A stretch of 64,000 nucleotides of DNA from Candidatus Roizmanbacteria bacterium (GTDB lineage: Bacteria; Patescibacteriota; Microgenomatia; UBA1406). A program made the position numbers and the translations under genes. The stretch covers positions 41,581 to 105,580 of the forward strand of contig JANLHL010000038.1 of the NCBI GenBank assembly GCA_024654535.1. The letters run 5' to 3'. The notes below the pieces were generated by a model that worked only from the letters and a program-made list of their open reading frames with translations, did not search any database and was not told the DNA's origin. The stretch's first letter is position 1. The number at the start of each line of letters is the position of its first letter. Shown here piece after piece: positions 15,234-60,718 of the stretch.

Positions 15234-15791
15234 ATGAAAGGCATTTTTTTTATGCTTGCTGCGTTATTTGTATTGGTAGCCACTTTTACTATTGTACGAA
15301 GCGTACAAGCTCAATCTATTGCATCGTGTGATCAGTGTGGTACGTGCCAGGGGGCTACCAAACTTCCAGGCAATTATACACAGTGTATGCAATGTCTATA
15401 TCCAAACGCGCCTCAAATAACATACCCTATGTATGATCCGGCGAATATGACCGCTCCGACTATACAAGCGAGGTTTCCTGCCAATTCAAGTCTTCGAGTA
15501 ACTCCTCTTGTGAGTAGACGTTATACCGCGGTAGGTTGTATAGAAACAACAGCGGGTGGATTTACCAATGCTTTTATGGGTTTGTTAAATGCACTCATTA
15601 CTGGTCTGGGGTTCTTAGGATTGGTCTATGGAGGTGTGCAAGTAATGCTTGCGCGAGGAGATAAAGACAAGCTGCAAGAGGGCAGAAATTATGTATATGC
15701 AGCTATCGCAACAGTACTCATAGTGAATTTAGCGGTCTACATTGTAAAGATAGTGGGTAAGAATATATTACAAATTCCGTACTTTGGGTGA
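15234..15791 (+). CDS. Secreted Cys-rich protein with a C-terminal TrbC/VirB2-like (T4SS-pilin-like) two-TM module
   Basis: Signal peptide MKGIFFMLAALFVLVATFTIVRSVQA. CDQCGTC...CMQC cluster. C-terminal GCIETT...two TM...ILQIPYFG. Promoter TTGACT-17-TACACT lies 7 nt before this ATG. Confidence 0.6.
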   Translation: MKGIFFMLAALFVLVATFTIVRSVQAQSIASCDQCGTCQGATKLPGNYTQCMQCLYPNAPQITYPMYDPANMTAPTIQARFPANSSLRVTPLVSRRYTAVGCIETTAGGFTNAFMGLLNALITGLGFLGLVYGGVQVMLARGDKDKLQEGRNYVYAAIATVLIVNLAVYIVKIVGKNILQIPYFG

Positions 15792-17497
15792 GACATTTAC
15801 CAATCTATAGAAAGCTGTTTATAAAGCTAGCAATAGCGGCTGTTATGATGTTCTCTTTGTTGCAGCCTATGAGCGTATTTGCGCTTGGAGTGCAGCCAAA
15901 TGATCTTACACAAAATGAAGTAGATTTTTGTAACAATGCCATTGAAGACGTTTCACTTACGTTTGGAAGAGGAGATATAAGAGAATTAAGCCTGAGCACT
16001 CAGCTCTATAGGGAAACTCTTTCAAGGGAAGTTTACTATCTAGATTCTACAGGTAATAGAGTAAATTTGCCGTTAGACCGACTCAGGTATGCATCAGGAA
16101 TTGGAGATTTTAATTCATTTAGAATTAAATTTAAACAGGGATATCTTCAAAATTTATTTGAGCCGGGAATAACGAACGCCAAATTGCTTGTAGATTTTCC
16201 AGGGCGAAATATTATTACCGGAATTGGTGGCCTTAGGTTTCCTGATAGTCAGGAATTTCTACAGGTTACAAGCGATTCAAGTAAACTGTTTGAATCTGGA
16301 AATTCTGTGTATGATTTTACCGATCTTAGGGCGCTTTTTAACAACAACCCAGTAAAGATGCTTGATGTTGGTGGAGAGATACAAGGCGGTTGGAGGAATG
16401 ATTTCTACCAAATATTTTTAAGCTATGATTACTCGCAAAGTCGTCATGAGTTGAGCTGTCCAATACGGTTTGCAGTCGCTGTACCACCACCAGAACAATA
16501 TTGTAGCGTTACTCTCACAAAGAACACCGGTGAGACAGTAGCATCATTACAGCAAGCTTCAGGAGCACAAGAATATGTATTTCCCGTAAATGATACAAAT
16601 GTTTATACACTTACTTTTTCTGATATAGACATTAACAGCCTAACATCTCAAGGAGGAAATACACTATTTCTCAATATAGGGTCTCAGAATTTAATGAGGA
16701 TGTCGTGCGGTATAACAAATCATATAAAACCAGAATGTAGAACATTCACCTTTTTGTTTGGTCCAGGCCACCATCAGTTTATTCCAACAAACGAAGGCAA
16801 GGAATATCTTTTGACGTTTACTGATACAGCAGGATTACCAAAATGTAGGGATGTACGTATAATTGCTGGGCATGATGATATTGAATCACAGCACCAATCT
16901 ACTCCAACAGGTGAGCCAAGTCGTGATTTGTCAGAGGACGATTTGAATCTGTATAATAACTTAGCAAAGAAGCAAACACAAGCTACGGTAGCAAATACTG
17001 TAGATCTGTGTGAAACGGTGTCACCCAACGCAGACTGTGGAGGTGGCAGAGGTTCCTGCGTACAGAAATGTCTTTCGTGCACGATAAGTATTACTACTGC
17101 AGAACAAAACGAACTCAATCAGCTCATAACCCAAGCTGACGAGAGTGGGAATTTGAGCGATACACAGTTGTCCCGTATGCAGGTGTTACAAGACAAATCA
17201 AATGGTCTATCGAGTACACATATTTGGACAGGTTTGGGGTGTATTCCGACCGATATTTCTGGTTTAATAAATAGTGTTTTTACAACGCTCGTTGGGGTTT
17301 TGGGCGGGTTTATACTACTCTGCATCATTTTCGAAGGTATGCGAATTATGACATCGGCAGGTAATCCCGAAGCGCTCAAAAAAGCACAAGAGGGTATTAC
17401 CTCATGTATTATCGGCTTTATAGTAGTGTTTTTCTCCGTGCTTATACTGCGTATCATTGGCGTTGATATATTACAGTTACCGTGGTTTGGTAAGTAA
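15788..17497 (+). CDS. Large secreted protein carrying the same C-terminal pilin-like two-TM module as the preceding gene
   Basis: GTGA start/stop overlap with the preceding gene. Signal peptide. About 440-aa N-terminal region with no motif I recognise. CGGGRGSCVQKCLSC cluster, then GCIPTD...AGNPEALKKAQEG...ILQLPWFGK. Confidence 0.6.
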   Translation: MRHLPIYRKLFIKLAIAAVMMFSLLQPMSVFALGVQPNDLTQNEVDFCNNAIEDVSLTFGRGDIRELSLSTQLYRETLSREVYYLDSTGNRVNLPLDRLRYASGIGDFNSFRIKFKQGYLQNLFEPGITNAKLLVDFPGRNIITGIGGLRFPDSQEFLQVTSDSSKLFESGNSVYDFTDLRALFNNNPVKMLDVGGEIQGGWRNDFYQIFLSYDYSQSRHELSCPIRFAVAVPPPEQYCSVTLTKNTGETVASLQQASGAQEYVFPVNDTNVYTLTFSDIDINSLTSQGGNTLFLNIGSQNLMRMSCGITNHIKPECRTFTFLFGPGHHQFIPTNEGKEYLLTFTDTAGLPKCRDVRIIAGHDDIESQHQSTPTGEPSRDLSEDDLNLYNNLAKKQTQATVANTVDLCETVSPNADCGGGRGSCVQKCLSCTISITTAEQNELNQLITQADESGNLSDTQLSRMQVLQDKSNGLSSTHIWTGLGCIPTDISGLINSVFTTLVGVLGGFILLCIIFEGMRIMTSAGNPEALKKAQEGITSCIIGFIVVFFSVLILRIIGVDILQLPWFGK

Positions 17498-20521: not shown

Positions 20522-20609
20522 GGAGGAGTCGCATAGCCAGGTCCATTGCGAGGGGTTGCTAACCCCTTGAGCCGCAAGGCTCGCGTGGGTTCGAATCCCA
20601 CCTCCTCCG
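20522..20609 (+). tRNA. tRNA-Ser (GCT), long variable arm
   Basis: Acceptor GGAGGAG/CTCCTCC, anticodon stem AGGGG/CCCCT with loop TTGCTAA, T-arm GTGGGTTCGAATCCCAC, discriminator G. Confidence 0.9.
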
Positions 20610-20716
20610 CAACGTAAAAACGCTTATCACATTGTTCACAATAGCCAGAATAGAGCGAGTGGACAGGCTCACAAATTTGTTGAACCAGATAATTAAATAT
20701 GTTAGTGTAAAATTAC

Positions 20717-21538
20717 ATGGATCCTCAAATTCAAAACATCCCACCACAGTCTCAATTTCAACAACCTGTTTATCAAAATCCCTTATCAAAAATAATTCCT
20801 TTTATTATAGTTGGTTTTATTTTAATTATTAGTACCTTTAGCGCTTATTATTTGGGTACTAAACACATAAGTAAGCAACAAATTGTTATCACTCCTACTC
20901 AACCTAGTCCAACTGAGATAATTAAACCAACTCAAAATATTTCCATATCAAATAACACACTAACCTCAACCCCAACAGTAACTGTTAATAATGATATTTA
21001 TACCGAATGGACAACATACACTAATTCAAGATATAGCTATAGTTTAAAATACCCAAAAGAATTTGTGGTAGAAGAAAAAGAAATAAATATTTGTCCTACT
21101 CTTAATCCTCTTACACCTCCAATCAGCCCTGGCTGCATAACAATAGAAAAAAAAGGTGATCGCGTTATTATTTATAATAAAAATAGAGTGTCAAGAAATG
21201 GTAGTGACGCATATTCTGAAATTCTTCTTAAAATTAATAATAAACCTCAGGTAAAAGACGAAGCTTGTTATAGCTTGAATAAAGAGCCCCCATACAGAGA
21301 AATTATTATAAACGGTAAGAGTTTGTTTGAACGTATAGATAGTAATGGCAATTTTGCATATTTGATTGTAGATTACAATAAGAAGAAAGATCCAAACGAA
21401 GAAGGCTTTTATTTATATTGTGAAACCATAGGTATTCCTATCAATAATTATTCCTTACTAATAAATGCAAATATAGGTGGGGTAGCTAAAGAGGATCAAG
21501 AAATAATGAGAATAATTATAGAATCTATTTCTTTTTAA
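20717..21538 (+). CDS. Membrane-anchored hypothetical protein with an extracytoplasmic domain; very AT-rich gene
   Basis: Pro/Gln-rich N-terminus, one TM (IIPFIIVGFILIISTFSAYYLG), Thr/Pro linker, and a roughly 190-aa domain with no recognised motif. Confidence 0.55.
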   Translation: MDPQIQNIPPQSQFQQPVYQNPLSKIIPFIIVGFILIISTFSAYYLGTKHISKQQIVITPTQPSPTEIIKPTQNISISNNTLTSTPTVTVNNDIYTEWTTYTNSRYSYSLKYPKEFVVEEKEINICPTLNPLTPPISPGCITIEKKGDRVIIYNKNRVSRNGSDAYSEILLKINNKPQVKDEACYSLNKEPPYREIIINGKSLFERIDSNGNFAYLIVDYNKKKDPNEEGFYLYCETIGIPINNYSLLINANIGGVAKEDQEIMRIIIESISF

Positions 21539-21948
21539 AACTATTTAAGCTGTATTCGATGAACCCCACTAAATTTCTATATGTAATCGTTTGAAGATAT
21601 TATACATATAAGTTTCTATTAAGTTTCATTCTGGGAACCCTGTGCTCATAAATAGAATATCATTTTTAGGATATACGTCGTAATAGACTCTCTTGTTTTT
21701 TATACTGTCCCAAATGTCCCCGTTAGCCTTCAGTTATAAGGACAGATTTGTTCTAGACCCGGTTGTTCCGCCAAAGATCTATAGTATTGGATGATCTAAG
21801 TACTATCGCTGTCTCAGTTCTTCTAGGAAGTTAATGGGAAAAATATATCTTTTAAACAGTCCTGTAGAATGAAAAACCGCCCAAAAACCCCTCAAGGGAA
21901 ATGTCGTTGGTTTTAACCTTTTCGTGTTATCTAGGTTGTTCTATCCTT

Positions 21949-21990
21949 CCCTGTGGAGGTATGAATTTCGTTCGAATCCCTCTCTCTGGA
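21949..21990 (+). pseudogene. tRNA-like 3' fragment (variable-arm end, T-arm and acceptor 3' strand), not foldable as an intact tRNA
   Basis: CCCTGTGGAGG[tatgaatttcg]TTCGAATCCCTCTCTCTGGA compared with the tRNA-Tyr 3' part CCCTACGGAGGTTCGAATCCTCCCCCCTGGA. No 5' acceptor partner was found. Confidence 0.35.
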
Positions 21991-22116
21991 CACTTTGATA
22001 AACTCAACGTAGGCTTAGAATAGGAAAGAGACAAAAACCGTTGCCTTAACCCTTCTTGCCATTAAAAAAGATTAAAATCTCTAATACACTGAAATAATTC
22101 TCTCTTACCTAATTTG

Positions 22117-22132
22117 TGTGAGTTAGATTACT
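22117..22132. promoter_or_regulatory. Second CRP-like site, TGTGAGTTAGATTACT
   Basis: 13 of 16 positions are identical to the 4655-4670 site. It lies about 120 nt upstream of the lmo0937-like/CsbD-like gene pair. Confidence 0.35.
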
Positions 22133-22250
22133 TAATATATGAATGTAGAATGACTGTTTAACACACCTCTTATTCGTACAATGCCTTTAGGTAACGCAGA
22201 AATAACGAAGATTTATAAATTGAATTTTTATGAAAGGTAGGTGAATATAG

Positions 22251-22397
22251 ATGGGACTAATAGATTTTATTATAGTTATATTAATAATTTCATGGTTGGG
22301 AGGATTTGCTCTTCACATAGGTGGTGGACTTATACATTTAATCCTTGTTATTGCTTTAATTGTGCTTGTTGCTCGTGTATTAGGTTTTAGTGTGTGA
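22251..22397 (+). CDS. lmo0937-family-like small membrane protein (48 aa)
   Basis: Below the ORF-track length cutoff. SD AGGTAGGTG 7 nt upstream. MGLIDFIIVILIISWLGGFALHIGGGLIHLILVIALIVLVARVL matches the family pattern. Confidence 0.6.
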   Translation: MGLIDFIIVILIISWLGGFALHIGGGLIHLILVIALIVLVARVLGFSV

Positions 22398-22430
22398 TGC
22401 ATTAATTAAATTATTAAATTTTAAAAAAAT

Positions 22431-22610
22431 ATGAATATTAAAACAAAGTTAGATATTGCTAAACAAAAGGTTGTAGGAGTTGCTCAACAGGTTAAAGGTG
22501 AAGCTGAAGTAATGTCAGGAAAACAAGTAAAAGGAAATGTAGATAAAATTCGCGGAAAGGCTAACGAAATGGCAGCTGATTTCAGAAGTAAGGTAGAAAA
22601 CGCTAAATAA
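22431..22610 (+). CDS. CsbD-like general stress protein (59 aa)
   Basis: Below the ORF-track cutoff. Repeated KGxxxxxxGK pattern (VKGEAEVMSGKQVKGNVDKIRGKANE). Confidence 0.65.
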   Translation: MNIKTKLDIAKQKVVGVAQQVKGEAEVMSGKQVKGNVDKIRGKANEMAADFRSKVENAK

Positions 22611-22620
22611 TAAAATAAAT

Positions 22621-23841
22621 ATGATGAAAGAAGCAACTTTTCAATATCAAAACATTATGAAAATAATGTATTATTCAAAGTATCTTCTAATTTCGTTGCT
22701 CATTATTTTGATGCAGCTTATTTTTATACCTCCACACATAGCGTATGCAGCCACTTCACCAGACCTTGGACAAGCTGCCAGTTTCTCGGTTTTGGGTTTT
22801 TCAGACGTAACCAATACCGGTACAACTTCCCTTTCCGGAGACCTAGGTGTTTGGTCAGGTAGTTCAATTACTGGGGGAGGGACCATTAATGTCGGTGGAG
22901 CCACACATACCACCGATTCAGTAGCGCAACAAGCACAAGCTGATGCAGGCACTGCAGACGGCAGTTTAACAGGTCAGGCCAATACAGGTGGTAGTCTCGG
23001 GGCTCTCGATTCGTTGGTTCTTGTTCCTGGTGTTTACGATTTAGCAGCAGGATCATTAGGTGGAGGTGTACTTACTCTTGACGGTCCAGGCGTCTACATA
23101 TTCAGGACAACCAGTACTCTCGTATCCGCTGGCTCGGTAAGCTTGATCAATGGAGCTCGGGCTTGTGACGTATTTTGGCATGTCCAAACTGCAGCGACTA
23201 TCAATGGTAGTTCGTTTGTGGGAACAATTATCGCAAAGACAGGCATCCAATTTGGTACAGGAGTAAGCTTAAACGGTCGAGCCTTAGCAATCGGGTCTGC
23301 TGTAACACTGCAGGGCAACGCAATCTCCGGGCCTTCCTGTGCAGCAGCCTCATCTTCCAGCTCATCATCTAATTCGTCATCCAATTCATTCCCTTTCGCT
23401 CCAGTTTGTGTCGATTCTGCTCCATCAAACAGTCCAAATCTTTTTCAAATAGACCGAGCAGGAAGTAAGGCAACAGTATATTTCACCCCAGTAAATGACC
23501 ATTTATCTTACTACTATATCGCATATGGTTTGAGTCCTGGGGATGAGCGGTATGGTGTATCTTTTCCAGCTAGTCTTTCAAGTGGAGTTGTTAACTTTAC
23601 TATAAATGATTTAAATCCAGATACAACTTATTTCTTTAAGGTTCGTGGTGGGAGTGGTTGTGCGCCGGGAGAATGGTCCAACAATAAAGAATCTAATTCT
23701 AAGAACCCAATGCTTCCAAACACAGGAAACGGACCTCAAAAAAGTACAATCCCATGGCAAATTCCAGTGGGTGTTTTCATCGGAATATCAACTCTCCTTG
23801 TTTTAATTCAAAAAAAACAGAGATGTTCATCCAGTTCTTGA
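22621..23841 (+). CDS. Cell-wall-anchored surface protein: DUF3494 (ice-binding-like beta-solenoid) domain, Ser-rich linker, FN3-like domain and LPXTG sorting signal
   Basis: LGQAASFSVLGFSDVTNTGTTSLSGDLGV...VLVPGVYD...LTLDGPGVYIFR...ACDVFWHV...GRALA...VTLQGNAIS. LPNTG at nt 23713-23727 followed by a TM and KKQR. Start uncertain (Met at 22621, 22657 or 22666). Confidence 0.8.
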   Translation: MMKEATFQYQNIMKIMYYSKYLLISLLIILMQLIFIPPHIAYAATSPDLGQAASFSVLGFSDVTNTGTTSLSGDLGVWSGSSITGGGTINVGGATHTTDSVAQQAQADAGTADGSLTGQANTGGSLGALDSLVLVPGVYDLAAGSLGGGVLTLDGPGVYIFRTTSTLVSAGSVSLINGARACDVFWHVQTAATINGSSFVGTIIAKTGIQFGTGVSLNGRALAIGSAVTLQGNAISGPSCAAASSSSSSSNSSSNSFPFAPVCVDSAPSNSPNLFQIDRAGSKATVYFTPVNDHLSYYYIAYGLSPGDERYGVSFPASLSSGVVNFTINDLNPDTTYFFKVRGGSGCAPGEWSNNKESNSKNPMLPNTGNGPQKSTIPWQIPVGVFIGISTLLVLIQKKQRCSSSS

Positions 23842-24425
23842 AAACGCAGGTTCGACGGCCTTTGTTACTGTCCATATTTGTTGCATTCTCCCTGATACTT
23901 CTTCTCTATAATGCTTTAGGAACATATGAACAGATGAAATTTCAAAACTCATCTAAACAAAAGCAGGGAACCGTTAAGACTGCCCAAGGATTGCCAATAC
24001 GTTTAATAATCCCAAAAATCAATGTTGACGCGCGTATTGAATACATGGGCGTTACGGCAACAGGAGCTATGGAGGTTCCCGATACTGCCGTTAATGTGGG
24101 ATGGTTTAAACTGGGCCCTCGACCTGGTGAACACGGAAGCGCAGTCATCGCGGGTCATTTTGACGGAAAAAATGGAGAAGCAGGGGTATTTATAAATCTA
24201 TATACTCTAAAAAAGGGTGACAAAATATACGTCGAAGATAGCAAAGGAACATCTGTTGCCTTCGTCGTTCGGGAAAGCCGTATCTATATCCCCAGTTACG
24301 CAAATGATGTTTTTAGCTCGAGTAGTAGCGCTCATCTTAATCTTATCACCTGCGACGGTGTATGGAATGGAGTTAAAAAAAGTTATAGCAAGCGTTTGGT
24401 AATATTCACCGATTTGATACGATAG
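23823..24425 (+). CDS. Sortase (class E/F-like transpeptidase)
   Basis: N-terminal TM anchor. LIIPKINVDARI, catalytic His in AGHFDG, and LNLITCDG (TLxTC-type Cys). 19-nt overlap with the LPXTG gene. Confidence 0.85.
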   Translation: MFIQFLKTQVRRPLLLSIFVAFSLILLLYNALGTYEQMKFQNSSKQKQGTVKTAQGLPIRLIIPKINVDARIEYMGVTATGAMEVPDTAVNVGWFKLGPRPGEHGSAVIAGHFDGKNGEAGVFINLYTLKKGDKIYVEDSKGTSVAFVVRESRIYIPSYANDVFSSSSSAHLNLITCDGVWNGVKKSYSKRLVIFTDLIR

Positions 24426-36149: not shown

Positions 36150-37121
36150 ATGACAATAATTAAAAGCGAGTTTGCGCTCGCACTCAATCAAATAGCTACA
36201 GAGCGAGGCATATCCTTAGAGGAGGTAATTAGCTCTATTGAGGAAGCGGTGAAAATAGCATACAAAAAAGAATACCACATTGAAGAAATGGAAGAAATCT
36301 TAGTAAAGATAGATCCGAAAACCGGTGGCGCTCGATTGTTTCAAGAAGATAAAGATATTACGCCTCCGGGATTTGGACGTATTGCCGCACAAACAGCAAA
36401 GCAAGTTATTATCCAAAAAATTCGAGAGGCAGAAAAAAAATCTGTCGTACAACACTTTAAGAAGCTTGAACATTCTTTAATAACGGGCCGTGTCATACGT
36501 TTTGACGGTAAAATTGCCTACGTTGACATTGGAAGAACCGAAGCTATATTACCACCTTCGGAACAAATTAGGAATGAGCGATACTACCCAAACACACGGT
36601 TGATTTTCTATCTTGTGGAAGTTATAGATGTTCCCGGTATGTATAAGATAATTCTTTCACGTAGAGATGAGCGCTTGATACAGGAGCTTTTTAAGAGAGA
36701 AGTCCCAGAACTGGCACAGGGAATGGTTGAAATTAGGAGAATTGTTCGAGAAGCTGGAGAACGCACTAAAATTGCTGTGTACTCAAAAGAACGTGGAGTA
36801 GATCCTGTCGGAAGTTGTGTTGGTCAAAAAGGTATTCGTATTCAATCTGTTATTCATTCTCTTGGGATTGACGAGAAAATAGATGTTGTGCAATGGAGTG
36901 ACGATCAGAAAACTTTTATCACGAATGCCATATCTCCATCAAAGCCAATTGAAATAGAAATACATGAAGAAGAAAAATTAGCCAATATATTTGTTGATTC
37001 AGAAGAACTTTCACTCATAATTGGACGTGAAGGACAGAATATTCGACTTGCTTCAAAATTAACAGGGTACACATTGAAAGCGCAACCAAAAGAAGAACAA
37101 GAGACCGCAGCGAAGAGCTGA
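36150..37121 (+). CDS. nusA: Transcription termination/antitermination factor NusA (no C-terminal AR repeats)
   Basis: N-terminal domain ALNQIATERGISLEEVISSIEEAVKIAYKK, an S1 domain, and two KH domains (GxxG: VGQKGIR, IGREGQN). Confidence 0.9.
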   Translation: MTIIKSEFALALNQIATERGISLEEVISSIEEAVKIAYKKEYHIEEMEEILVKIDPKTGGARLFQEDKDITPPGFGRIAAQTAKQVIIQKIREAEKKSVVQHFKKLEHSLITGRVIRFDGKIAYVDIGRTEAILPPSEQIRNERYYPNTRLIFYLVEVIDVPGMYKIILSRRDERLIQELFKREVPELAQGMVEIRRIVREAGERTKIAVYSKERGVDPVGSCVGQKGIRIQSVIHSLGIDEKIDVVQWSDDQKTFITNAISPSKPIEIEIHEEEKLANIFVDSEELSLIIGREGQNIRLASKLTGYTLKAQPKEEQETAAKS

Positions 37122-37141
37122 TTTGTAAGTTTATATAAAAA

Positions 37142-38554
37142 ATGAAAGAAAGATCTCCAGTGGTTGCTGTTGTTGGCCATGTCGACCACGGCAAAACTAC
37201 ATTATTAGATACCATCCGAAAAACTAATATCACTGCACGTGAGGAGGGAGGGATTACACAGAAAATTGGTGCATATGAGGTCTATACCGAAGAAGGAAAA
37301 TATATTACCTTCATTGATACCCCGGGACATGAAGTTTTCATCAATCTTCGTAAAAGAGGTGTACAGACAGCAGATATAGTGCTATTGGTTATTGCTGCAG
37401 ATAGTTCAGTGCAACCTCAAACACTTGAATCGATACGTGCTATACAAGAGGCGCATGCTCCTTGCATTGTTGTGATAACTAAGATTGACGTACCCAACGC
37501 ATTACCAGAAAAAGTGATTAAGGATCTTGCGAAGGCAAATATATTACTCGAGGGAAGGGGTGGCGAAGTTCCTTATGTTCTTCTCAATGCAAAAGACAAA
37601 AAAGATATGCCAAAATTACTCGAACTGATTACTCTTGTTTCTCAATTACAGAATTATACGTATGATCCGAAGCAACCAGTTGAAGGGTCGGTCATTGAGG
37701 TACGAAAAGATAGAAGAGGTATTATTCCAACTATTATTTTAAAAAACGGTTCTATAGACGTTGGAACAACTGTATATATTGGCGGTACGACGGTACGAGT
37801 ACGTGCCTTAGTTGATCAGTTAGGTAAGAATCACACGCACATAGAACCAGTTACACCATTTGAACTACTAGGAATGAAAGATGTTGTTAATGCGGGAGCG
37901 CTCGTATTGCAAAATGACACAGAAATAATACAAAAGAAAGAGAAAAACAAAGGGCCATCGTGGGAAGATACAAAAAAGAAATTTAACTTTCTTGTTCGAG
38001 CGGATTCTTTTGGGTCACTCGAAGTTATTCGAGAAAAGCTTAAGGCTTTTGAAGAGATTGACATTATCAGTAGTGACATAGGTGAACCGACAGAGCGTGA
38101 CATAGAAACAGCGTCTTCTACAAATGCGAATATGTTGGTTTTCCAAGTCCCTATTCGAGCTCCTATTCAGGCAAAGGCCGATGCTGCTGGCGTTGGTGTA
38201 TTCCATTACATGTTGATATACGAGCTTCTTGAAGAAATAGAAGACCTCATTGTATCTCTACGTGAACGCCGTCAAAAAGAGGCGCGTAAAGTTGGTGAAG
38301 CGCGGATTATGGCAATTTTTGTAAAAGAAAATAAGAAAATTGCAGGACTAAAAGTAATATCAGGTCAAATGGAAGAGGGTAGTTCTGCTGAAATAACAAG
38401 AGGTAGAAAGATCCTTGGAGAAACTACTATAAGCTCTATATTTATGAAAACTACCCCGGTACCTATGGTGCGCAAGGGAGACGAGTGTGGCGCTATATTC
38501 ACCGATTCTGTTGACTTTAGGCAGGGTGATATAGTAAAATTATATGTACAATGA
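37142..38554 (+). CDS. infB: Translation initiation factor IF-2, minimal form that begins at the G domain
   Basis: RSPVVAVVGHVDHGKTTLLD starts at residue 4. DTPGHE and TKID motifs. 470 aa in total. Confidence 0.9.
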   Translation: MKERSPVVAVVGHVDHGKTTLLDTIRKTNITAREEGGITQKIGAYEVYTEEGKYITFIDTPGHEVFINLRKRGVQTADIVLLVIAADSSVQPQTLESIRAIQEAHAPCIVVITKIDVPNALPEKVIKDLAKANILLEGRGGEVPYVLLNAKDKKDMPKLLELITLVSQLQNYTYDPKQPVEGSVIEVRKDRRGIIPTIILKNGSIDVGTTVYIGGTTVRVRALVDQLGKNHTHIEPVTPFELLGMKDVVNAGALVLQNDTEIIQKKEKNKGPSWEDTKKKFNFLVRADSFGSLEVIREKLKAFEEIDIISSDIGEPTERDIETASSTNANMLVFQVPIRAPIQAKADAAGVGVFHYMLIYELLEEIEDLIVSLRERRQKEARKVGEARIMAIFVKENKKIAGLKVISGQMEEGSSAEITRGRKILGETTISSIFMKTTPVPMVRKGDECGAIFTDSVDFRQGDIVKLYVQ

Positions 38555-39609: not shown

Positions 39610-41847
39610 ATGATTTCTTTCGGAAAGAATAAAAAAAAGAGCATGGTATTTATAGCCTTTTTTTTTGCAATTATCCTCGGACTTGCGATTCTTATAAGCG
39701 CATTTATGCTCATTCGCGACTTACCTTCTCCAAATAGGCTAAACGAGCCTGGTACAATTGCATATTCTACTCACATATACGATAGGCACGGCAAACTATT
39801 ATATGAAATATATAGAGATCAGAATCGCACGCCAGTAAAATTGGCGACTTTACCAAAGCATGTGAAGTGGGCCACAATATCTATTGAGGATAAGGATTTC
39901 TATAAGCACGGTGGTGTTTCAATAATTGGTGGTGTTGTTCGTGCTTTGAAAGCAAATTTAACGAATTCAACAAAACTACAAGGCGGTTCAACCATTACTC
40001 AACAACTCGTGAAGTCGGCTTTACTGACGCCAGAGAGAACAATTCAACGAAAAGTAAAAGAAATTATACTTGCCCTTCTGGTTGAGCGTCGCTATAACAA
40101 AGACGAAATAATAGAAATGTACTTGAATCAGGTGCCGTACGGTGGTACTGCGTGGGGAATACAAGAGGCGTCGAAGTTATATTTTGATAAAAATGCACAA
40201 AAGTTATCACTCGCACAAGCGGCACTTTTGGCTGGATTGCCACAGGCTCCCTCGCTCTATTCCCCTTATGTCAATCCTCAAGCAGCAATCGATAGACAAC
40301 ACGAAGTGTTAAAACTCATGTTGAAAGAAAATTATATATCACAAAAAGAGTACGATACGGCTATACACGAACATTTAACATTCAAACGACCAAAAAATAC
40401 AATTCTTGCTCCACATTTTGTATTCTATGTGAAACAATTATTAGAAAAAGAATATGGAGAAAGACGAGTCCAGGAAGGAGGCTTGCGAGTTTATACGACA
40501 CTTGACTATGACATACAAAAGAGCGCAGAAGACATTTTAGATGAGGAACTCAAGAATTTAAAAGGATACAATGTTGGTAATGGCGCACTGATGGTAACCC
40601 GGCCACCCACGGGGGAAATCCTCGCTATGATAGGCTCAAAAGATTTTTTTGGTACCGCGTCTGGTGCATATAATGTAACAACAGCACTTCGTCAACCGGG
40701 AAGTTCAATTAAGCCGCTCAATTACGCAGTAGGGATAGATACACACAGAGTAACTGCTTCTAGTATGTTTTTAGATATTCCCACTTGTTTTGCGGTTCCT
40801 GGTCAAAAGGGTTATTGTCCTAAGAATTATGACAATACATTTCATGGACCAGTCCAGTTACGATTTGCTTTAGCAAATTCATATAACATTCCTGCTGTAA
40901 AAATGTTGGCTCTCAATGGAGTTGATACGTTCGTTGCCTCTGCATCCGCTTTTGGAATAAGTACATTTAAAGATCCATCACGATATGGACTTTCGTTGAC
41001 TTTGGGTGGTGGTGAAGTTCGCATGACAGATATGGCTCGAGCATTTTCTATATTTCCGAACCAAGGGGTAGACAAAGACCTTGTTGCCGTTCTTCGTGTA
41101 GAAGATAGAAATAAGAAAGAATTATATAAATACGAAGATAGAAATGTAATAACTGATGTTGTGAAAAAAAAGCTCAACTATCCCAATACGTTGTTTATCC
41201 AAGGCCCTCGCCTAATAGGTCGTGATACCGCGTTTATTATATCCCATATATTATTAGATAATAATGCTCGTGCCCAGGCTTTTTCAACAGGCTCTTTGCT
41301 CCATCTACCCGGACATGAAGCAGTGTCGGTAAAAACGGGCACAACAGATGATTTTAAAGATAACTGGACAATAGGGTTTACGCCAAATTTCATGACGCTT
41401 GTGTGGGTGGGTAATAATGACGGAACGCCTATGAACTCTAATCTTACTTCAGGGGTGACAGGAGCAGCCCCGATTTGGAATAGAGTTATGCAAAAAGTGC
41501 TGAAAAATCAACCTGATTTATGGCCAATTCAGCCAGATACAGTTGTTGGTGCGGAAGTATGTACTATCTCAGGCATGAGGCCACGTATGAATGGAGACGC
41601 AAAATCGTGTAATACTCGTTATGAATATTTTGCAAAGGGTACTGTCCCGGCAGAAGAAAATAACGTGAGCACTCAGAAAGTATTTATGAAAAAAGATTCG
41701 GATAAAATTGCAAAAGAAGGTGATACTGATAATGTTGAAGAAAAGGATAAAATCATAGCTACCGATTGGTTTTCTCGCTACTGTTTAGACTGTAATCATG
41801 AAAATTCGGATTTTACGACAGTTTCTATTTCCTCTCATGGACAGTAA
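39610..41847 (+). CDS. Class A penicillin-binding protein (glycosyltransferase GT51 plus transpeptidase)
   Basis: GT51 motifs SIEDKDFYKHGG and GGSTITQQLVK. Transpeptidase motifs SSIK, SYN and KTGTT. Confidence 0.9.
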   Translation: MISFGKNKKKSMVFIAFFFAIILGLAILISAFMLIRDLPSPNRLNEPGTIAYSTHIYDRHGKLLYEIYRDQNRTPVKLATLPKHVKWATISIEDKDFYKHGGVSIIGGVVRALKANLTNSTKLQGGSTITQQLVKSALLTPERTIQRKVKEIILALLVERRYNKDEIIEMYLNQVPYGGTAWGIQEASKLYFDKNAQKLSLAQAALLAGLPQAPSLYSPYVNPQAAIDRQHEVLKLMLKENYISQKEYDTAIHEHLTFKRPKNTILAPHFVFYVKQLLEKEYGERRVQEGGLRVYTTLDYDIQKSAEDILDEELKNLKGYNVGNGALMVTRPPTGEILAMIGSKDFFGTASGAYNVTTALRQPGSSIKPLNYAVGIDTHRVTASSMFLDIPTCFAVPGQKGYCPKNYDNTFHGPVQLRFALANSYNIPAVKMLALNGVDTFVASASAFGISTFKDPSRYGLSLTLGGGEVRMTDMARAFSIFPNQGVDKDLVAVLRVEDRNKKELYKYEDRNVITDVVKKKLNYPNTLFIQGPRLIGRDTAFIISHILLDNNARAQAFSTGSLLHLPGHEAVSVKTGTTDDFKDNWTIGFTPNFMTLVWVGNNDGTPMNSNLTSGVTGAAPIWNRVMQKVLKNQPDLWPIQPDTVVGAEVCTISGMRPRMNGDAKSCNTRYEYFAKGTVPAEENNVSTQKVFMKKDSDKIAKEGDTDNVEEKDKIIATDWFSRYCLDCNHENSDFTTVSISSHGQ

Positions 41848-52612: not shown

Positions 52613-53638
52613 ATGGTAGACGTATCTTTAATTGTAATTGTGCTGTTGGTTTTAGTGATCGTAATTGGTGTGATTCTTTACTTTAGGCGTTCTGGTCAGT
52701 CAAATTCTCCTGAAATGCTTGAGTATCTCAAGCAAACCATGCAGACAGTGCACGAAACGAATAGACGATACGATGAACTTACCCATATGGTATCGAAGCA
52801 GCTTGCAGATCAGAGCACGGGCTTTTTTTCGACGCTTCAAAAAAATTCTGCCGACATGAACCAGCGGTTAGATAAAGCAGCAGAAGTTATAGGAGCAGTA
52901 CAAAAAAATATTGGAGAACTTTCAGAAGTTGGCAGAAGTATAAAAGATCTCCAAGACTATTTGCGCAGCCCAAAACTACGTGGCAACATAGGAGAGCATA
53001 TTTTAGTTGAAGCGCTGCGCCAGCTTTTGCCTCGTGAGTTGTACGAAATACAGTATGCGTTTCCTTCGGGCGAGACGGTCGACGCAATTATCAAAATTGG
53101 AGATATGTATATTCCCATCGATTCGAAGTTCCCAATGGAAAATTTTACCAAAATGAATAAAACGCACGCTGAAGAGAAAAAACAAGCACAAAAACAGTTC
53201 TTTATAGATGTGCGTAAACACATAGCAGACATTGCCAGAAAATACATATCTGCAAATGCAAAAACGGTAAATTATGCACTCATGTATGTTCCTTCGGAAT
53301 CAATATATTATGAAATCATTCAACATGACGATATATTTAACCTGAGCCGCGACAAATCGGTACTTTTGGTGTCGCCTATGAGTTTCAATGCTTTTTTACG
53401 AGCAGTACTTATGTCTTTACAGGGTATCCGTGTTCAAAAGAAAGCTCGTGAAATCTTATCTATTCTTGAGTCGACGAGAAAAGAGTATGAGAAAATAGAT
53501 GAGGCACTTGGCGTACTTGAAAAACATTTCGGAAATGCGTACAACCAGCTGCAAAATGTTAACAAGTTTTTTATGCGTTTGGGAACCAAATTAGAACAAA
53601 CGAAACATGTGGAATTACCAGTGCCAGAGGAAGAGTAA
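52613..53638 (+). CDS. rmuC: DNA recombination protein RmuC
   Basis: N-terminal TM and coiled coil, then RGNIGEHILVEAL...DAIIKIG...IPIDSKFP...MYVPSE. Confidence 0.85.
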   Translation: MVDVSLIVIVLLVLVIVIGVILYFRRSGQSNSPEMLEYLKQTMQTVHETNRRYDELTHMVSKQLADQSTGFFSTLQKNSADMNQRLDKAAEVIGAVQKNIGELSEVGRSIKDLQDYLRSPKLRGNIGEHILVEALRQLLPRELYEIQYAFPSGETVDAIIKIGDMYIPIDSKFPMENFTKMNKTHAEEKKQAQKQFFIDVRKHIADIARKYISANAKTVNYALMYVPSESIYYEIIQHDDIFNLSRDKSVLLVSPMSFNAFLRAVLMSLQGIRVQKKAREILSILESTRKEYEKIDEALGVLEKHFGNAYNQLQNVNKFFMRLGTKLEQTKHVELPVPEEE

Positions 53639-57554: not shown

Positions 57555-58216
57555 TGAAGAAATCACATCCCGAAATGCAGATTGAGCGTCTTTTGACGGT
57601 GTGGGGGATTATAGTTATTTCTTGGAGTTTTTTCCGCGCGTATACTCAGATTCCACTCTGGGTAAGTGAATTTATTGCAAAACCTTTAATTTTTATAGGA
57701 CCTGTCTATTTTTATATAAAGAGATTTGAATCAAAAGGATCATTTGTTCGATCAATAGGTTTTCATGGGAAAAATATTTTTAAGGAATTTCTCCTTGCTC
57801 TAACGCTCATTTTTATACTTATTGTTGTTGGTTTTTTCAGTCTGTCCAAAAGCCCTTTGCTATCTTTAGCGAACGTACAAGTTCAGTGGGGTAAATTCTT
57901 ATTGGTAGCTGCTCTTGCAGTGGCAACGGCTTTATCCGAAGAGATCGTTGGAAGGGGTTTTTTATTCCAGTACTTATTTAAATATTCGAAAAGTTTTTTT
58001 ATATCATTTTTCCTCTCAATGCTTCTGTTCTTTATATTATATCTGCCGGGTGTACTTACATCAGGAGCAGGTGGTGGCATATTGCTTTTGAGTTTTGCGC
58101 TCAACATAATTATGACGACAATTTCCGTGGTTTTGTATAAGTTAAGGGGTAATCTATTACTGCCAATAGCTGTACATATGGCGATTCTTATTTGGTTTGA
58201 TTTGTTCTTGTTGTAA
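57554..58216 (+). CDS. CPBP family intramembrane glutamic endopeptidase
   Basis: ALSEEIVGRGFLF (EExxxR) and a distal His (AVHMAILIW) in a polytopic protein. TAATG junction with the preceding gene. Confidence 0.8.
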   Translation: MKKSHPEMQIERLLTVWGIIVISWSFFRAYTQIPLWVSEFIAKPLIFIGPVYFYIKRFESKGSFVRSIGFHGKNIFKEFLLALTLIFILIVVGFFSLSKSPLLSLANVQVQWGKFLLVAALAVATALSEEIVGRGFLFQYLFKYSKSFFISFFLSMLLFFILYLPGVLTSGAGGGILLLSFALNIIMTTISVVLYKLRGNLLLPIAVHMAILIWFDLFLL

Positions 58217-59828
58217 TAGGTTCATATAGTTCAAACATGTGTTCGGTGTCACACATAATGGATTGTAGATGCTTCAGTCCATCAGTTTTATCTCCGTTCT
58301 GAGACTCAGCTTGAGAAAGAACGTATAATGTGTGTGGAGTAATATGCCCTTTTATGTCTGTTGAAAATATGAATTTATCAAAATTGGTAATTTGTGTATA
58401 TCCATACACGTCAGGTTTTTCCATAGTATGCATACTTGATGTATATCGTTGAGGTGAGTAGTTAAGGTAGAACAGCATAAAAATATATGGCTGACCATTT
58501 TCTTTGGTAATATGAAACGAATCGTAGCTATTATATTTTTTCGCGATAACTTGCGTTAATTCTTTATAGCCACATTCCCAAGAGCGAATCACTATGTTTC
58601 TATGAGAATAGTGAAAAAAATAAAAATTCCAAACATAGGCTGTAAGTATAGTGTAGCCAAATAGAGAACAAATAATAAGTGGCTTAACGTATGGGATTTT
58701 TTGCTTATTTTCCCAAATGTACGATACGGCAAGAGAGACTAAAATTAGTACCGGAACTACGAAAAAATACGACCTGTTGAGTGCGTTCTCTTGCCACGTG
58801 AGTGCGGCTGAGAGTGGTGCAACGAGCATAAGAATAAGTATGAGAATATATGACCGTTTTTTTATGTTCATATATGCAATTACTATGCCAAGTATGAATA
58901 ACATATATTCCACAATACTTAATGGAGCCATCGATGGAAATCCGAATCTATTTCCATTCGTATCTCCAGTATAGGTGAGGAAGTTTAGTGAAAAATAATT
59001 TGTATACCGTCTCAGGAATTCATATCCTCCGACAAATAAAGAGTTGCTGAATGGTGAATGTGCCTGTTCGACCATGAATTGTTGTGAGATGAGCCTTACT
59101 CCATCACTCGTGAAGAGGAATAAGTTCTTTATGCGATTCGCTGGCATTGCGATTTCTGCACTCAAAAAAGGAATGAGGAGTAGAAGCATAGCGATAAACA
59201 TATATGTGGTATTTTTTTTCGATATATTCTTTGTTTTTATAAAGTATATCCACGTTCCTAAGTATACAACTGCAATTATTCGAGCTATATGATAGGTGTA
59301 AAGCGATATGAATAGAAATAGTATGAAGAACAAGCCGTCTAATAGCCGTCTTTTTTGTGAAAGCCGGATAAGGAATATAAGGGAAAGTACAAGGAACAGA
59401 GTCATTGGGACTGCCTCATGTGCATGCCGTGCTAATATATGAATCCAAGGAGAGAATGTAGTTAAGAATGCAGTTACGAGAGCGATTTTTTTATCAAATA
59501 AAATTTTTGCAAGAAAATACATTGCTGGAATGAGAAGAATAGCAGCTATGAGCGAAGGTAAACGTGTTGTCGTTTCATTCAAACCAAAAAGGGCAATAAA
59601 TGGAATTGTTAGATACGAATATCCCGGTAGTTTATAATCGCCAAATGATACTAGACGAAGCGGGAGTTTGTTACCATACTCGTCTGCTCCCGTCTTTAAA
59701 ATACTGTACGCGTTGTACCCATACGCTGCTTCATCTGCATTGAACCCTGGAGGAACTGAATGAAGTTTATATGTGTGCAAGAACAATGCACAGAACATAA
59801 GCATCAATAAAAAAAGAACACGTTTCAT
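58188..59828 (-). CDS. GT-C fold glycosyltransferase (family 39 / ArnT-PMT-like)
   Basis: SVPPGFNADEAAYGYNAYSILKTGADEYGNKLPL is the typical first-loop motif. Start at the ATG at 59828 (ATGA overlap with the upstream GT2). Confidence 0.75.
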   Translation of the reverse strand: MKRVLFLLMLMFCALFLHTYKLHSVPPGFNADEAAYGYNAYSILKTGADEYGNKLPLRLVSFGDYKLPGYSYLTIPFIALFGLNETTTRLPSLIAAILLIPAMYFLAKILFDKKIALVTAFLTTFSPWIHILARHAHEAVPMTLFLVLSLIFLIRLSQKRRLLDGLFFILFLFISLYTYHIARIIAVVYLGTWIYFIKTKNISKKNTTYMFIAMLLLLIPFLSAEIAMPANRIKNLFLFTSDGVRLISQQFMVEQAHSPFSNSLFVGGYEFLRRYTNYFSLNFLTYTGDTNGNRFGFPSMAPLSIVEYMLFILGIVIAYMNIKKRSYILILILMLVAPLSAALTWQENALNRSYFFVVPVLILVSLAVSYIWENKQKIPYVKPLIICSLFGYTILTAYVWNFYFFHYSHRNIVIRSWECGYKELTQVIAKKYNSYDSFHITKENGQPYIFMLFYLNYSPQRYTSSMHTMEKPDVYGYTQITNFDKFIFSTDIKGHITPHTLYVLSQAESQNGDKTDGLKHLQSIMCDTEHMFELYEPITTRTNQTK

Positions 59829-60718
59829 TGTACGAGTTGCGTAATTATATCGTCCGTAATATAGTCTCTTTTTTTTGATCGGAAAGACAACAAGTGAGGT
59901 AGCTTCCCGAGTGCTGCAATAAGTGATACGAAAAATAATACATTGTGAAAAAGCGCACGTATTGCGTAGAGAGGCAGAAGAAGCAAATGTTGTACTGTAA
60001 AGCGCGTTCCCATATTCTTCCATACAAATAATAGTTGATTTCTTTGAGCAACAAAACGAATATACCAGTCGGGGAAGTAACGTCGAATCGTTGTTTCATG
60101 ATGGTGTTTAACGAGTATTGAAGGCATAAATAAGATTGTGTAATTATTTTTCCACGCTCGATAACCGAGGTCTACATCTTCCCAATAAAACGGCGAATAC
60201 ATACGGTCATACCCACCAAGTATTGTAAAAATGTCTTTTTTAAGAAGGCAACTCCCACCCTCTGGCCATAACGTCGCACATTCTTTTGTGCATATTTTCC
60301 CTGAATGCACAAATAAACCTTCCGTAAATTTGCCGGTATTGGCCCCGACGATACTGCCATTTTTTTCTACTTGGGCAAAACCAACCGCAAATAAACGTTT
60401 CGACTTCTCAAGTTTATTTTTCGCCAGTATGTACGAAGTGTCAGAGAGTATGACGTCAGAATTGAGAAGCATAATATAGTTATGCTTAGCTAAGGTAATT
60501 GCACGATTAACCGACAAACCAAATCCCATATTCCGGTCATTTTTTATATATAGACAAGTAGGGCAGATCTTTTTCACGGCGATTTTTAGCTCAAAATCCT
60601 GTGGATCGTCATTTACTATGATAATTTCACACGATTTTAAATATTTTGCATTTGTACGTAGATTTTTCAAAAAATCTTCTTTATTTTTGTAGACAGGGAT
60701 AACAACTGAAATGTTCAT
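59825..60718 (-). CDS. Glycosyltransferase family 2
   Basis: ISVVIPVYKNKEDFL...IIVNDDPQD...LNSDV (DxD-type) and FYWEDVDL. Confidence 0.85.
   Translation of the reverse strand: MNISVVIPVYKNKEDFLKNLRTNAKYLKSCEIIIVNDDPQDFELKIAVKKICPTCLYIKNDRNMGFGLSVNRAITLAKHNYIMLLNSDVILSDTSYILAKNKLEKSKRLFAVGFAQVEKNGSIVGANTGKFTEGLFVHSGKICTKECATLWPEGGSCLLKKDIFTILGGYDRMYSPFYWEDVDLGYRAWKNNYTILFMPSILVKHHHETTIRRYFPDWYIRFVAQRNQLLFVWKNMGTRFTVQHLLLLPLYAIRALFHNVLFFVSLIAALGKLPHLLSFRSKKRDYITDDIITQLVQ

Follow-up and report, generated by a model that had tools for sequence, protein, structure and literature searches.

A DUF3494 surface protein with an exchanged head and its adjoining sortase in a Candidatus Roizmanbacteria genome: a candidate wall-anchored recognition protein

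The stretch of DNA considered here (the window, meaning the whole 64,000 nucleotides analysed, from contig JANLHL010000038.1) belongs to a metagenome-assembled genome (MAG) of a Candidatus Roizmanbacteria bacterium, a very small organism of the groundwater type and a member of the Microgenomates within the Patescibacteria, in line with the small-genome, putatively host-dependent bacterium supposed by an initial annotation made from the sequence alone. At 22621-24425 the window carries the gene of a predicted surface protein with a DUF3494 (Ice_binding) domain and, overlapping its end, that of a sortase. Both are proteins of known kinds and both were annotated beforehand: the former is 100% identical to NCBI MCR4329680.1, titled 'MAG: ice-binding family protein [Candidatus Roizmanbacteria bacterium]', and the latter is found under the next accession, MCR4329681.1, as a 'class F sortase' with a shorter protein. 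However, neither the coupling of this sortase subfamily to DUF3494 proteins nor the exchange of the DUF3494 head as a cassette, on which the present analysis centres, is described in the literature searched, which yielded no paper joining DUF3494 with a sortase and none joining 'ice-binding' with 'candidate phyla radiation'. The parts of the two genes are as follows.

22621..23841 (+): surface protein gene, 406-amino acid (aa) open reading frame (ORF), from the ORF list, Pfam and the NCBI match
22621..22749 (+): predicted signal peptide, aa 1-43, with a basic n-region, a hydrophobic core and a cleavage site between AYA and A, from inspection and conservation in alignments
22750..23340 (+): DUF3494/Ice_binding beta-solenoid head, putative exchangeable cassette, aa 44-240, from Pfam, AlphaFold2 (AF2) and Foldseek
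23341..23433 (+): Ser-rich disordered linker, aa 241-271, in which the head cassette would have its 3' recombination breakpoint
23434..23685 (+): fn3-like beta-sandwich stalk, aa 272-355, flanked by Cys263 and Cys347
23713..23727 (+): LPNTG sortase recognition motif, aa 365-369
23761..23823 (+): predicted hydrophobic membrane-retention segment (aa 381-396) and basic tail (KKQR, aa 398-401), AF2 helix 380-405
23823..24425 (+): sortase, 200 aa from ATG 23823, Pfam PF04203
23853-23921 (+): N-terminal transmembrane (TM) anchor of the sortase, sequence RRPLLLSIFVAFSLILLLY
24156-24158, 24351-24353 and 24393-24395 (+): sortase catalytic residues His112, Cys177 and Arg191, from alignment

The 406-aa ORF lies where the initial annotation had placed it, but the orthologue alignment corrects its beginning, the probable true start being ATG 22657 (Met13). 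The features of the predicted signal peptide, as judged by sequence inspection, are kept in the same alignment, and the AF2 model shows in this region a helix (aa 2-34) followed by a disordered hinge. The DUF3494 assignment is borne out by a PF11999 match over aa 57-235 (E=5.8e-34, 118 bits versus a cutoff of 28.7) that covers positions 1-207 of the 208 of the profile. The poly-Ser linker and the FN3-like domain that had been proposed are also recovered, the former as a disordered segment of the model (aa 246-262, pLDDT, the predicted local distance difference test score, <50) and the latter as a Pfam fn3 match just above the cutoff (aa 272-354, E=7.9e-6, 26.4 bits versus 25).

The C-terminus reads NPM-LPNTG-NGPQKSTIPWQ-IPVGVFIGISTLLVLI-Q-KKQR-CSSSS, with the motif exactly where it was first placed and the hydrophobic segment and the KKQR tail after it, and has all the marks of an LPXTG-type sorting signal, namely a motif in the last ~50 residues, a hydrophobic segment and a basic tail. 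L365, P366 and G369 are invariant in the orthologue alignment. Of the 120 best homologues of the surface protein, 110 have a [LIVMFA]Px[TSA]G-type signal, which is a strict LPxTG in 76 and LPNTG in 56, so that the motif or a near variant of it is conserved. The signal of the candidate phyla radiation (CPR) proteins extends past LPXTG, as LPNTG-[FN]-[AG]-P-(5-7 aa)-PW ahead of the hydrophobic segment, and the Chloroflexota-type signal reads LP[SN]TGG[AG]PI[RQ]...PW; a P/S-W/L dipeptide is found 4-14 residues past the motif in 72 of the 120 homologues.

The model obtained with AF2 from 19 homologues averages a pLDDT of 81. The head is predicted to fold as a beta-solenoid braced by one long alpha-helix (aa 100-118), which packs on the solenoid strands within a region (aa ~50-235) where the pLDDT is mostly >90; the stalk (aa 272-355) is modelled as a beta-sandwich (pLDDT 80-89), and the surroundings of LPNTG are disordered, with the terminal helix after them. 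Foldseek comparison of the head with the PDB returned DUF3494 ice-binding proteins (IBPs) only. The top match, 6EIO (E=1.4e-14, TM-score (TMt) 0.84, root-mean-square deviation 1.4 Å, 211 columns, 36% identity), shows that the modelled head matches the known DUF3494 fold. The stalk matched FN3 domains (TMt 0.7-0.8). The PDB sequence search agrees with these results, 6EIO being again the best solved relative (E=5.5e-24). Cys182 is near-invariant and Cys240 invariant across the CPR, Chloroflexota and Actinomycetota relatives, and both are absent from 6EIO; a Cys182-Cys240 disulfide that would close the end of the solenoid can reasonably be inferred.

The longest ORF of the sortase spans 23754-24425 (+). 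With the start at ATG 23823 the 19-nt overlap between the two genes reported in the initial annotation is reproduced, and the same overlap is found in orthologous loci (9230 versus 9248 in L082, 1922 versus 1940 in L083, and 1393 versus 1411 in the ERZ1426827 contig). The NCBI call starts later (163 aa) and would delete the membrane anchor. ATG 23823 is therefore preferred, because it keeps the conserved overlap and the TM helix and gives the length of the homologues, which are nearly all of 190-200 aa. The PF04203 match (E=1.4e-21, 77 bits versus a cutoff of 26.6) confirms the family, and the His of AGHFDG and the Cys of LITCDG singled out earlier correspond to H112 and C177, which, like R191, are invariant in alignments of 17 and 20 sequences covering CPR and Chloroflexota. 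Among the NCBIfam sortase classes the best is F (NF033748, 118.3 bits, under its cutoff of 166), followed by E (35.9 bits), C (32.4 bits, cutoff 160) and GN (31.7 bits), so that, despite its NCBI name, the enzyme is best described as class-F-like. These scores also bear on the idea that the DUF3494-fn3 protein is polymerised into a sortase-assembled pilus or fibre, instead of, or before, being anchored to the wall. CPR cells do carry pili-like appendages, and the best solved-structure matches of the sortase are of class C, if weak (E ~1e-6), but the 118 bits for class F against 32 for class C, the single substrate gene with no second pilin or sortase in the window, and the fn3-like stalk, with no pilin-type repeat architecture seen, make such a fibre most improbable.

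The conservation of the pair was surveyed from both sides. On the sortase side, 42 metagenome loci with at least 1300 nt of sequence upstream of a related sortase were compared, and 35 of these have a DUF3494 gene immediately upstream, in the same orientation; in another 14 loci the short upstream sequence available ends in an LPXTG tail. On the DUF3494 side, a genome scan gave at least 596 relatives, the neighbourhoods being taken from the best 80 loci, 19 of which have a sortase downstream, always on the same strand. These 19 comprise every CPR locus with enough flank, two of Chloroflexota and several of Actinomycetota, most of the actinomycetotal copies among the 80 having no sortase nearby (e.g. 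Micromonospora, with LPVTG). The dedicated sortase-substrate pair that the initial annotation had suspected is thus well supported by the related loci. The genes around it vary, from EamA and a hydrolase in the window to HSP20/GroEL in L081, MgtC/CNNM in L088 and nusA-infB in L089, and integrase-type (rve) genes are found upstream of the orthologous cassette in L081 and L082. Since the flanks differ while the pair persists, the pair moves as a unit.

Some observations on individual loci may be added. Seven loci of Actinomycetota (L011, L012, L020, L023, L024, L038 and L042) have VDTGGG, APDTGG, PPTGLGG or PPRTGGG signals with their own divergent sortase directly after, which suggests dedicated sortases with altered motif specificity. 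The closest relative of the window is L089, 86.6% identical in nucleotide sequence over the sortase region, where the sortase is followed directly by nusA, infB, a gene for a 295-aa protein and rmuC (L089 298-5581). The window counterparts lie at 23823-24425 (the sortase), 36150-38554 and 52613-53638, with nusA 11.7 kb and rmuC 28 kb further on; the spacing of nusA and rmuC being different, large insertions or rearrangements must separate the two genomes. L001-L003 are titled 'uncultured Gammaproteobacteria' and P0030 'Oligoflexia', yet their cassettes are of CPR type: L002 has a GC content of 0.39 and an LPNTG-IAP...PW tail, the stalk of P0030 is 82% identical to that of the window protein, and the sortases of L001-L003 score 196-331 bits against a profile built from the closest homologues of the window sortase. 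The taxonomic names given to these MAGs do not look trustworthy.

Free-living bacteria, namely Chloroflexota (Bellilinea, Anaerolineales) and Actinomycetota, have the cassette as well, and it is therefore not specific to a host-dependent lifestyle. The same distribution has to be set against the reading closest to the database title, namely that of a genuine ice-binding protein or ice adhesin, which would suppress the recrystallisation of ice at the cell surface or keep the cell attached to it. The best solved relatives are all active IBPs (6EIO, 36% identity, and 7BWX/7BWY, 37-40%), the fold of the AF2 model is the canonical one, and some of the related contigs may come from cold habitats. 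However, the NCBIfam equivalog for such proteins (IBP_CFB) gives 46 bits to the surface protein versus a cutoff of 400, and the clade is abundant in Bellilinea and other Anaerolineales, in soil Actinomycetota (Micromonospora, Microbacterium, Streptosporangium) and in groundwater contigs labelled Hainich. Anaerolineales, soil actinomycetes and the Hainich groundwater occupy non-freezing habitats. Because the clade is so distributed, in Anaerolineae, among soil actinomycetes and in groundwater contigs, a function on ice is considered quite unlikely.

The second main result came from splitting the surface protein into head, stalk and tail and comparing each part separately with the 120 best homologues. 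A first group (P0004-P0010, P0012, P0013, P0016 and others) has stalks 75-87%, tails up to 96% and sortases 75-82% identical to those of the window, with heads that are only 34-46% identical. In a second group the reverse is found, with heads that are 72-94% identical on an unrelated stalk (P0011, P0014-P0026) or 68-78% identical with no stalk and with signals of the Chloroflexota type (P0042-P0071, among which P0046 of Bellilinea, 76.7%). The heads of the window and Bellilinea proteins are 77% identical, their sortases only 28%.

The discordance is equally evident in the DNA. In blastn comparisons L081-083 match the window only from 23353 on (80%), whereas L084 and the Bellilinea locus L086 match it only at 22715-23306 (73.5% and 71.6%, respectively). 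Sliding identity to L170 is about 0.71 in the signal peptide, falls to 0.36-0.53 in the head and rises to 0.74-0.94 from 23360 into the sortase, with a jump from ~0.5 to 0.84 at ~23360, and the steps in nucleotide identity are located at ~22800 and 23353. Identities by segment with L088 and L170 are the following.

Signal peptide: 0.59 with L088, 0.75 with L170
Head: 0.80 with L088, 0.54 with L170
Tail: 0.865 with L088, 0.95 with L170
5' end of the sortase: 0.76 with L088, 0.88 with L170

In a neighbour-joining tree of the heads, that of the window is placed among those of other CPR-tailed proteins; this group is the sister of a large clade of the Chloroflexota type (with xPxTGG[AG] signals), and the 'type B' heads, with which the window protein has its stalk in common, lie far away. 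Because the identities of the segments are discordant at both the protein and the DNA level, the head is best seen, to judge from these alignments, as a cassette replaced by recombination between the signal-peptide and the Ser-linker/stalk sequences, and its lineage appears to have crossed between phyla. As for the age of the transfer, the window copy has a GC content at third codon positions (GC3) of 0.36 and the Bellilinea copy one of 0.59, each like its own genome, and the transfer is therefore not recent. The horizontal acquisition put forward in the initial annotation stands to the extent that the head is a recombinant with cross-phylum affinity, but not on the ground of GC content from which it had been argued.

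The GC-richer patch is confirmed: GC content is 0.495 in the head-coding part versus 0.381 for the window, and the 600-bp segment starting at 22801 (GC 0.50) is the highest of all those taken at 100-bp steps across the 64 kb; of the 'very AT-rich' flanks described earlier, only 20600-22700 (GC 0.29-0.34) deserves the term. However, partitioning by codon position gives for the gene GC1/GC2/GC3 values of 0.483/0.515/0.315, to be compared with window means of 0.474/0.348/0.320 (59 ORFs; standard deviation of GC3, 0.043), the GC2 value being the highest among the 59. The excess, which lies only in codon positions 1 and 2, is due to the composition of the head, 53% of whose amino acids are Gly, Ser, Ala or Thr. 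An expected GC3 was computed from the amino acids of the protein and the synonymous usage of the window; against it the observed value has a z of -0.36 (gene) or +1.12 (head), the standard deviation among the reference genes being 1.29. GC content as a signal of transfer is ruled out by these two analyses, synonymous usage being ordinary and codon usage matching that of the window, and composition offers no evidence of a foreign origin of the cassette, an outcome that the initial annotation had itself named as refuting its argument. The case is a cautionary one, in that a GC-rich patch can be purely an effect of amino acid composition. Two antisense ORFs within the head (22671-22952 and 23094-23384, minus strand) are presumed to be by-products of the same composition.

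A real compositional outlier is present nearby: the ORF at 20717-21538 (+) has a GC content of 0.298 and the lowest GC3 of the window (0.19, z=-3.8), encodes a 273-aa membrane-anchored hypothetical protein with weak PsbP_2 and HtdO matches only, and lies just downstream of a tRNA-Ser(gct) gene (20522-20610). The ~560 nt between it and the cassette region (21540-22100) contain no ORF of at least 50 aa on either strand and match no RNA family, and could be what remains of a gene or of an integration event. The tRNA-Ser gene, 2 kb upstream of the pair, could be taken together with the head's raw GC content, the maximum for the window, and with the rve genes upstream of the cassette in L081/L082 as the trace of a recently acquired foreign island. 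This is very improbable for the pair, with GC3 and synonymous usage that match the window, a Bellilinea homologue so adapted to its own genome that any transfer must be old, and a compositional outlier beside the tRNA that is a different gene.

Upstream of the pair, on the same strand, three further features were recognised.

22104..22250 (+): conserved non-coding leader, candidate promoter/5' untranslated region (UTR), from nucleotide conservation
22251..22397 (+): 48-aa small membrane protein of the DUF5670/lmo0937 family (PF18919, NF033488)
22431..22610 (+): 59-aa CsbD-like small protein, weak Pfam match, with its stop 10 nt before ATG 22621

The leader (~150 nt) is 82% identical in nucleotide sequence to L081-083 and L090 and 79% to L088, with an abrupt onset at CCTTACCTAATTTGTGTGAG and conserved blocks that include TATTCGTACAATGC and TTTATAAATTGAA. 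It has no Rfam match, a permissive scan of 21500-22660 giving one snoRNA match at chance level; its predicted fold (22104-22255) has a z value of -0.58, which lends no support to a structured RNA, and a promoter and terminator scan did no better than on shuffled sequences. It may serve as promoter or UTR. The DUF5670 assignment is firm (PF18919, E=1.3e-10, 41.6 bits versus a cutoff of 23.5; NF033488, 39.9 bits versus 30), and that to CsbD is weak (E=0.0097, 16 bits, under the cutoff). Gaps of 33 nt and 10 nt separate the DUF5670 gene from the CsbD-like gene and the latter from the surface protein gene.

DUF5670 is found near the pair in 18 of the loci fetched, in CPR and Chloroflexota (including L004 and L006), and bona fide CsbD genes in the Chloroflexota loci L004, L006 and L086, with a close homologue of the CsbD-like gene beside DUF5670 in L088; the association with the pair is recurrent but partial. 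Loci in which DUF5670, sometimes with CsbD, stands beside the pair are L004, L006, L016, L081-083, L086, L088, L100, L110 and L134. In L016 and L134 the DUF5670 gene directly precedes the sortase, and in L016 it has the substrate gene on its other side. Whether the pair is generally linked to HSP20, Usp or ferritin was tested by jackhmmer over all fetched loci, and such a link was rejected, the matches being confined to single lineages.

These neighbours raise the possibility of a stress-induced protective coat, in which the surface protein, along with the DUF5670 and CsbD-like proteins, would alter wall hydration or the cell surface under osmotic, desiccation or cold stress. The two small genes lie directly upstream, behind the conserved leader, and recur with the pair as described, i.e. 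in two phyla for DUF5670 and in three Chloroflexota loci for CsbD; lmo0937 is sigma-B dependent in Listeria (PMC7690807), and HSP20/GroEL or Usp/ferritin genes are neighbours at some loci. Nevertheless a coat is considered unlikely. The HSP20, Usp and ferritin links are limited to single lineages, most of the paired loci have no DUF5670 inside the flank fetched, and 3.5 kb, with two opposite-strand genes, separate the small genes from the pair in L088. Furthermore, swapping of the head would not be expected of a coat protein.

When all these data are considered, a conserved and probably co-transcribed cassette that displays a wall-anchored DUF3494 solenoid on the cell surface, for adhesion to, or recognition of, a surface or ligand other than ice more than as an antifreeze, emerges as the rather probable reading. 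In the proposed mechanism the precursor would be exported via its N-terminal signal peptide and held in the membrane by the C-terminal hydrophobic segment and the KKQR tail, until the sortase, itself membrane-anchored and presumably translationally coupled to its substrate, cuts LPNTG between Thr368 and Gly369 and transfers the protein onto a peptidoglycan precursor. The window encodes a class A penicillin-binding protein (39610-41847) and an LD-carboxypeptidase, and a peptidoglycan acceptor therefore exists. The ~200-aa head would then stand outside the wall on the Ser-rich linker and the fn3-like stalk. Covalent anchoring, the operon and the binding role of the head are inferred from the sequences. 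Such swapping of the head, across lineages and phyla, is to be expected of a domain that lies exposed and recognises a partner or surface outside the cell.

A number of points weigh against adhesion or recognition by a dedicated pair. The protein has only one stalk domain with no tandem repeats, and is not a typical long fibrillar adhesin; its closest solved relatives (36-40% identity) are all genuine ice binders; and the DUF5670 and CsbD neighbours hint at a stress rather than an adhesion context. On the side of the enzyme, the class F score is under its cutoff, and the AF2 model from the 20-sequence alignment is unusable (pLDDT 47). In favour of a dedicated pair, on the other hand, the surface protein is the only LPXTG substrate and the only DUF3494 protein, and the enzyme the only sortase, within the 64 kb of the window. 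As to the surface that is recognised, host attachment, for which the initial annotation had considered the pair a good candidate, is plausible for a CPR cell, but the presence of the same cassette in free-living phyla deprives it of specific support.

A bolder version of the adhesion reading would make the DUF3494-LPXTG protein the principal, near-universal wall-anchored surface protein of Patescibacteria of the Microgenomates type, served by a sortase of its own and with a swappable head that recognises the host or partner and whose exchange, including that with Chloroflexota, re-targets the episymbionts. This is regarded as rather doubtful; if true, 'ice-binding-like' domains in non-frozen habitats would represent a general module for cell-surface recognition.

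Little is known of the way in which ultrasmall Patescibacteria recognise partner cells and hold on to them, type IV pili having been the focus of work so far. The present pair provides a concrete and testable candidate for a surface-recognition protein, with a type of sortase that is genomically tied to one substrate family, a stalked DUF3494 solenoid with an exchanged and presumably exposed head. It also strengthens the view that, outside icy habitats, something else probably lies behind most 'ice-binding family' annotations.

Other features of the window may be recorded briefly. A 569-aa protein encoded at 15788-17497 (+) has a C-terminal T4SS_pilin domain (PF18895, E=1.5e-10) and is a candidate surface or conjugation-type component. 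A gene similar to O-mannosyltransferases of the PMT_2 family is present at 58188-60023 (-), and another is found near the cassette in L089; that the Ser-rich linker is a target of O-glycosylation is pure speculation. Rfam at the gathering threshold detects five tRNAs in the window and nothing else.

Among known systems, the solved DUF3494 IBPs (EfcIBP, 6EIO; AnpIBP, 7BWX/7BWY; ColAFP, 3WP9; FfIBP, 4NU2) share with the window protein the Pfam family, the fold and 36-40% sequence identity. They come from polar organisms, which secrete them as free proteins, and their antifreeze activity has been measured, whereas the window protein has a stalk, a predicted covalent wall anchor and the Cys182/Cys240 pair that is absent from 6EIO, and belongs to a clade found across non-polar lineages. 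SfIBP_1 of Shewanella frigidimarina (6BG8) comes from a diderm and has a lipid anchor and tandem Big domains. It resembles the window protein in that a DUF3494 head is joined to at least one beta-sandwich domain spacing it from the cell surface, and differs from it in that the latter has just one fn3-like domain as its stalk, bears an LPNTG signal and is paired with a sortase of its own. SfIBP_1 has been proposed to be an ice adhesin (Vance et al. 2018, as cited in PMC11645318).

Ice_binding is also listed as a head domain for fibrillar-adhesin-like proteins by a survey (Monzon et al. 2021, PMC8286594) that makes no mention of CPR, Chloroflexota or an adjacent sortase. As in those proteins, an N-terminal head, a stalk and a C-terminal sortase motif follow each other in the window protein, which, unlike them, is short (~325 aa when mature) and has one stalk domain; more distant CPR homologues carry stalk domains of PF19403, a family defined in the same survey (PMC8286594).

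With regard to the enzyme, a sortase family is reported to occur in nearly all Microgenomates (PMC6744442), and no description of its substrate was found in the literature searched. The window sortase is like class F sortases, e.g. the housekeeping enzyme of Cutibacterium acnes, and like fam000526 (Meheust et al. 2019) in having class F as its best class, the His-Cys-Arg residues, an N-terminal anchor and an LPXTG-type substrate. It is unlike a housekeeping sortase, which serves many scattered substrates, in that its subfamily adjoins one substrate family in 35 of 42 loci, and its score is under the class F cutoff. Dedicated pairs are known from SrtB and IsdC and from the class GN 'marine' sortase (TIGR03784) with its cognate target, which are inherited and moved together. 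The window pair shares with them the arrangement of a sortase gene beside that of one cognate substrate, and differs from them in sortase class (its GN score is only 31.7 bits), in substrate family and in lineage.

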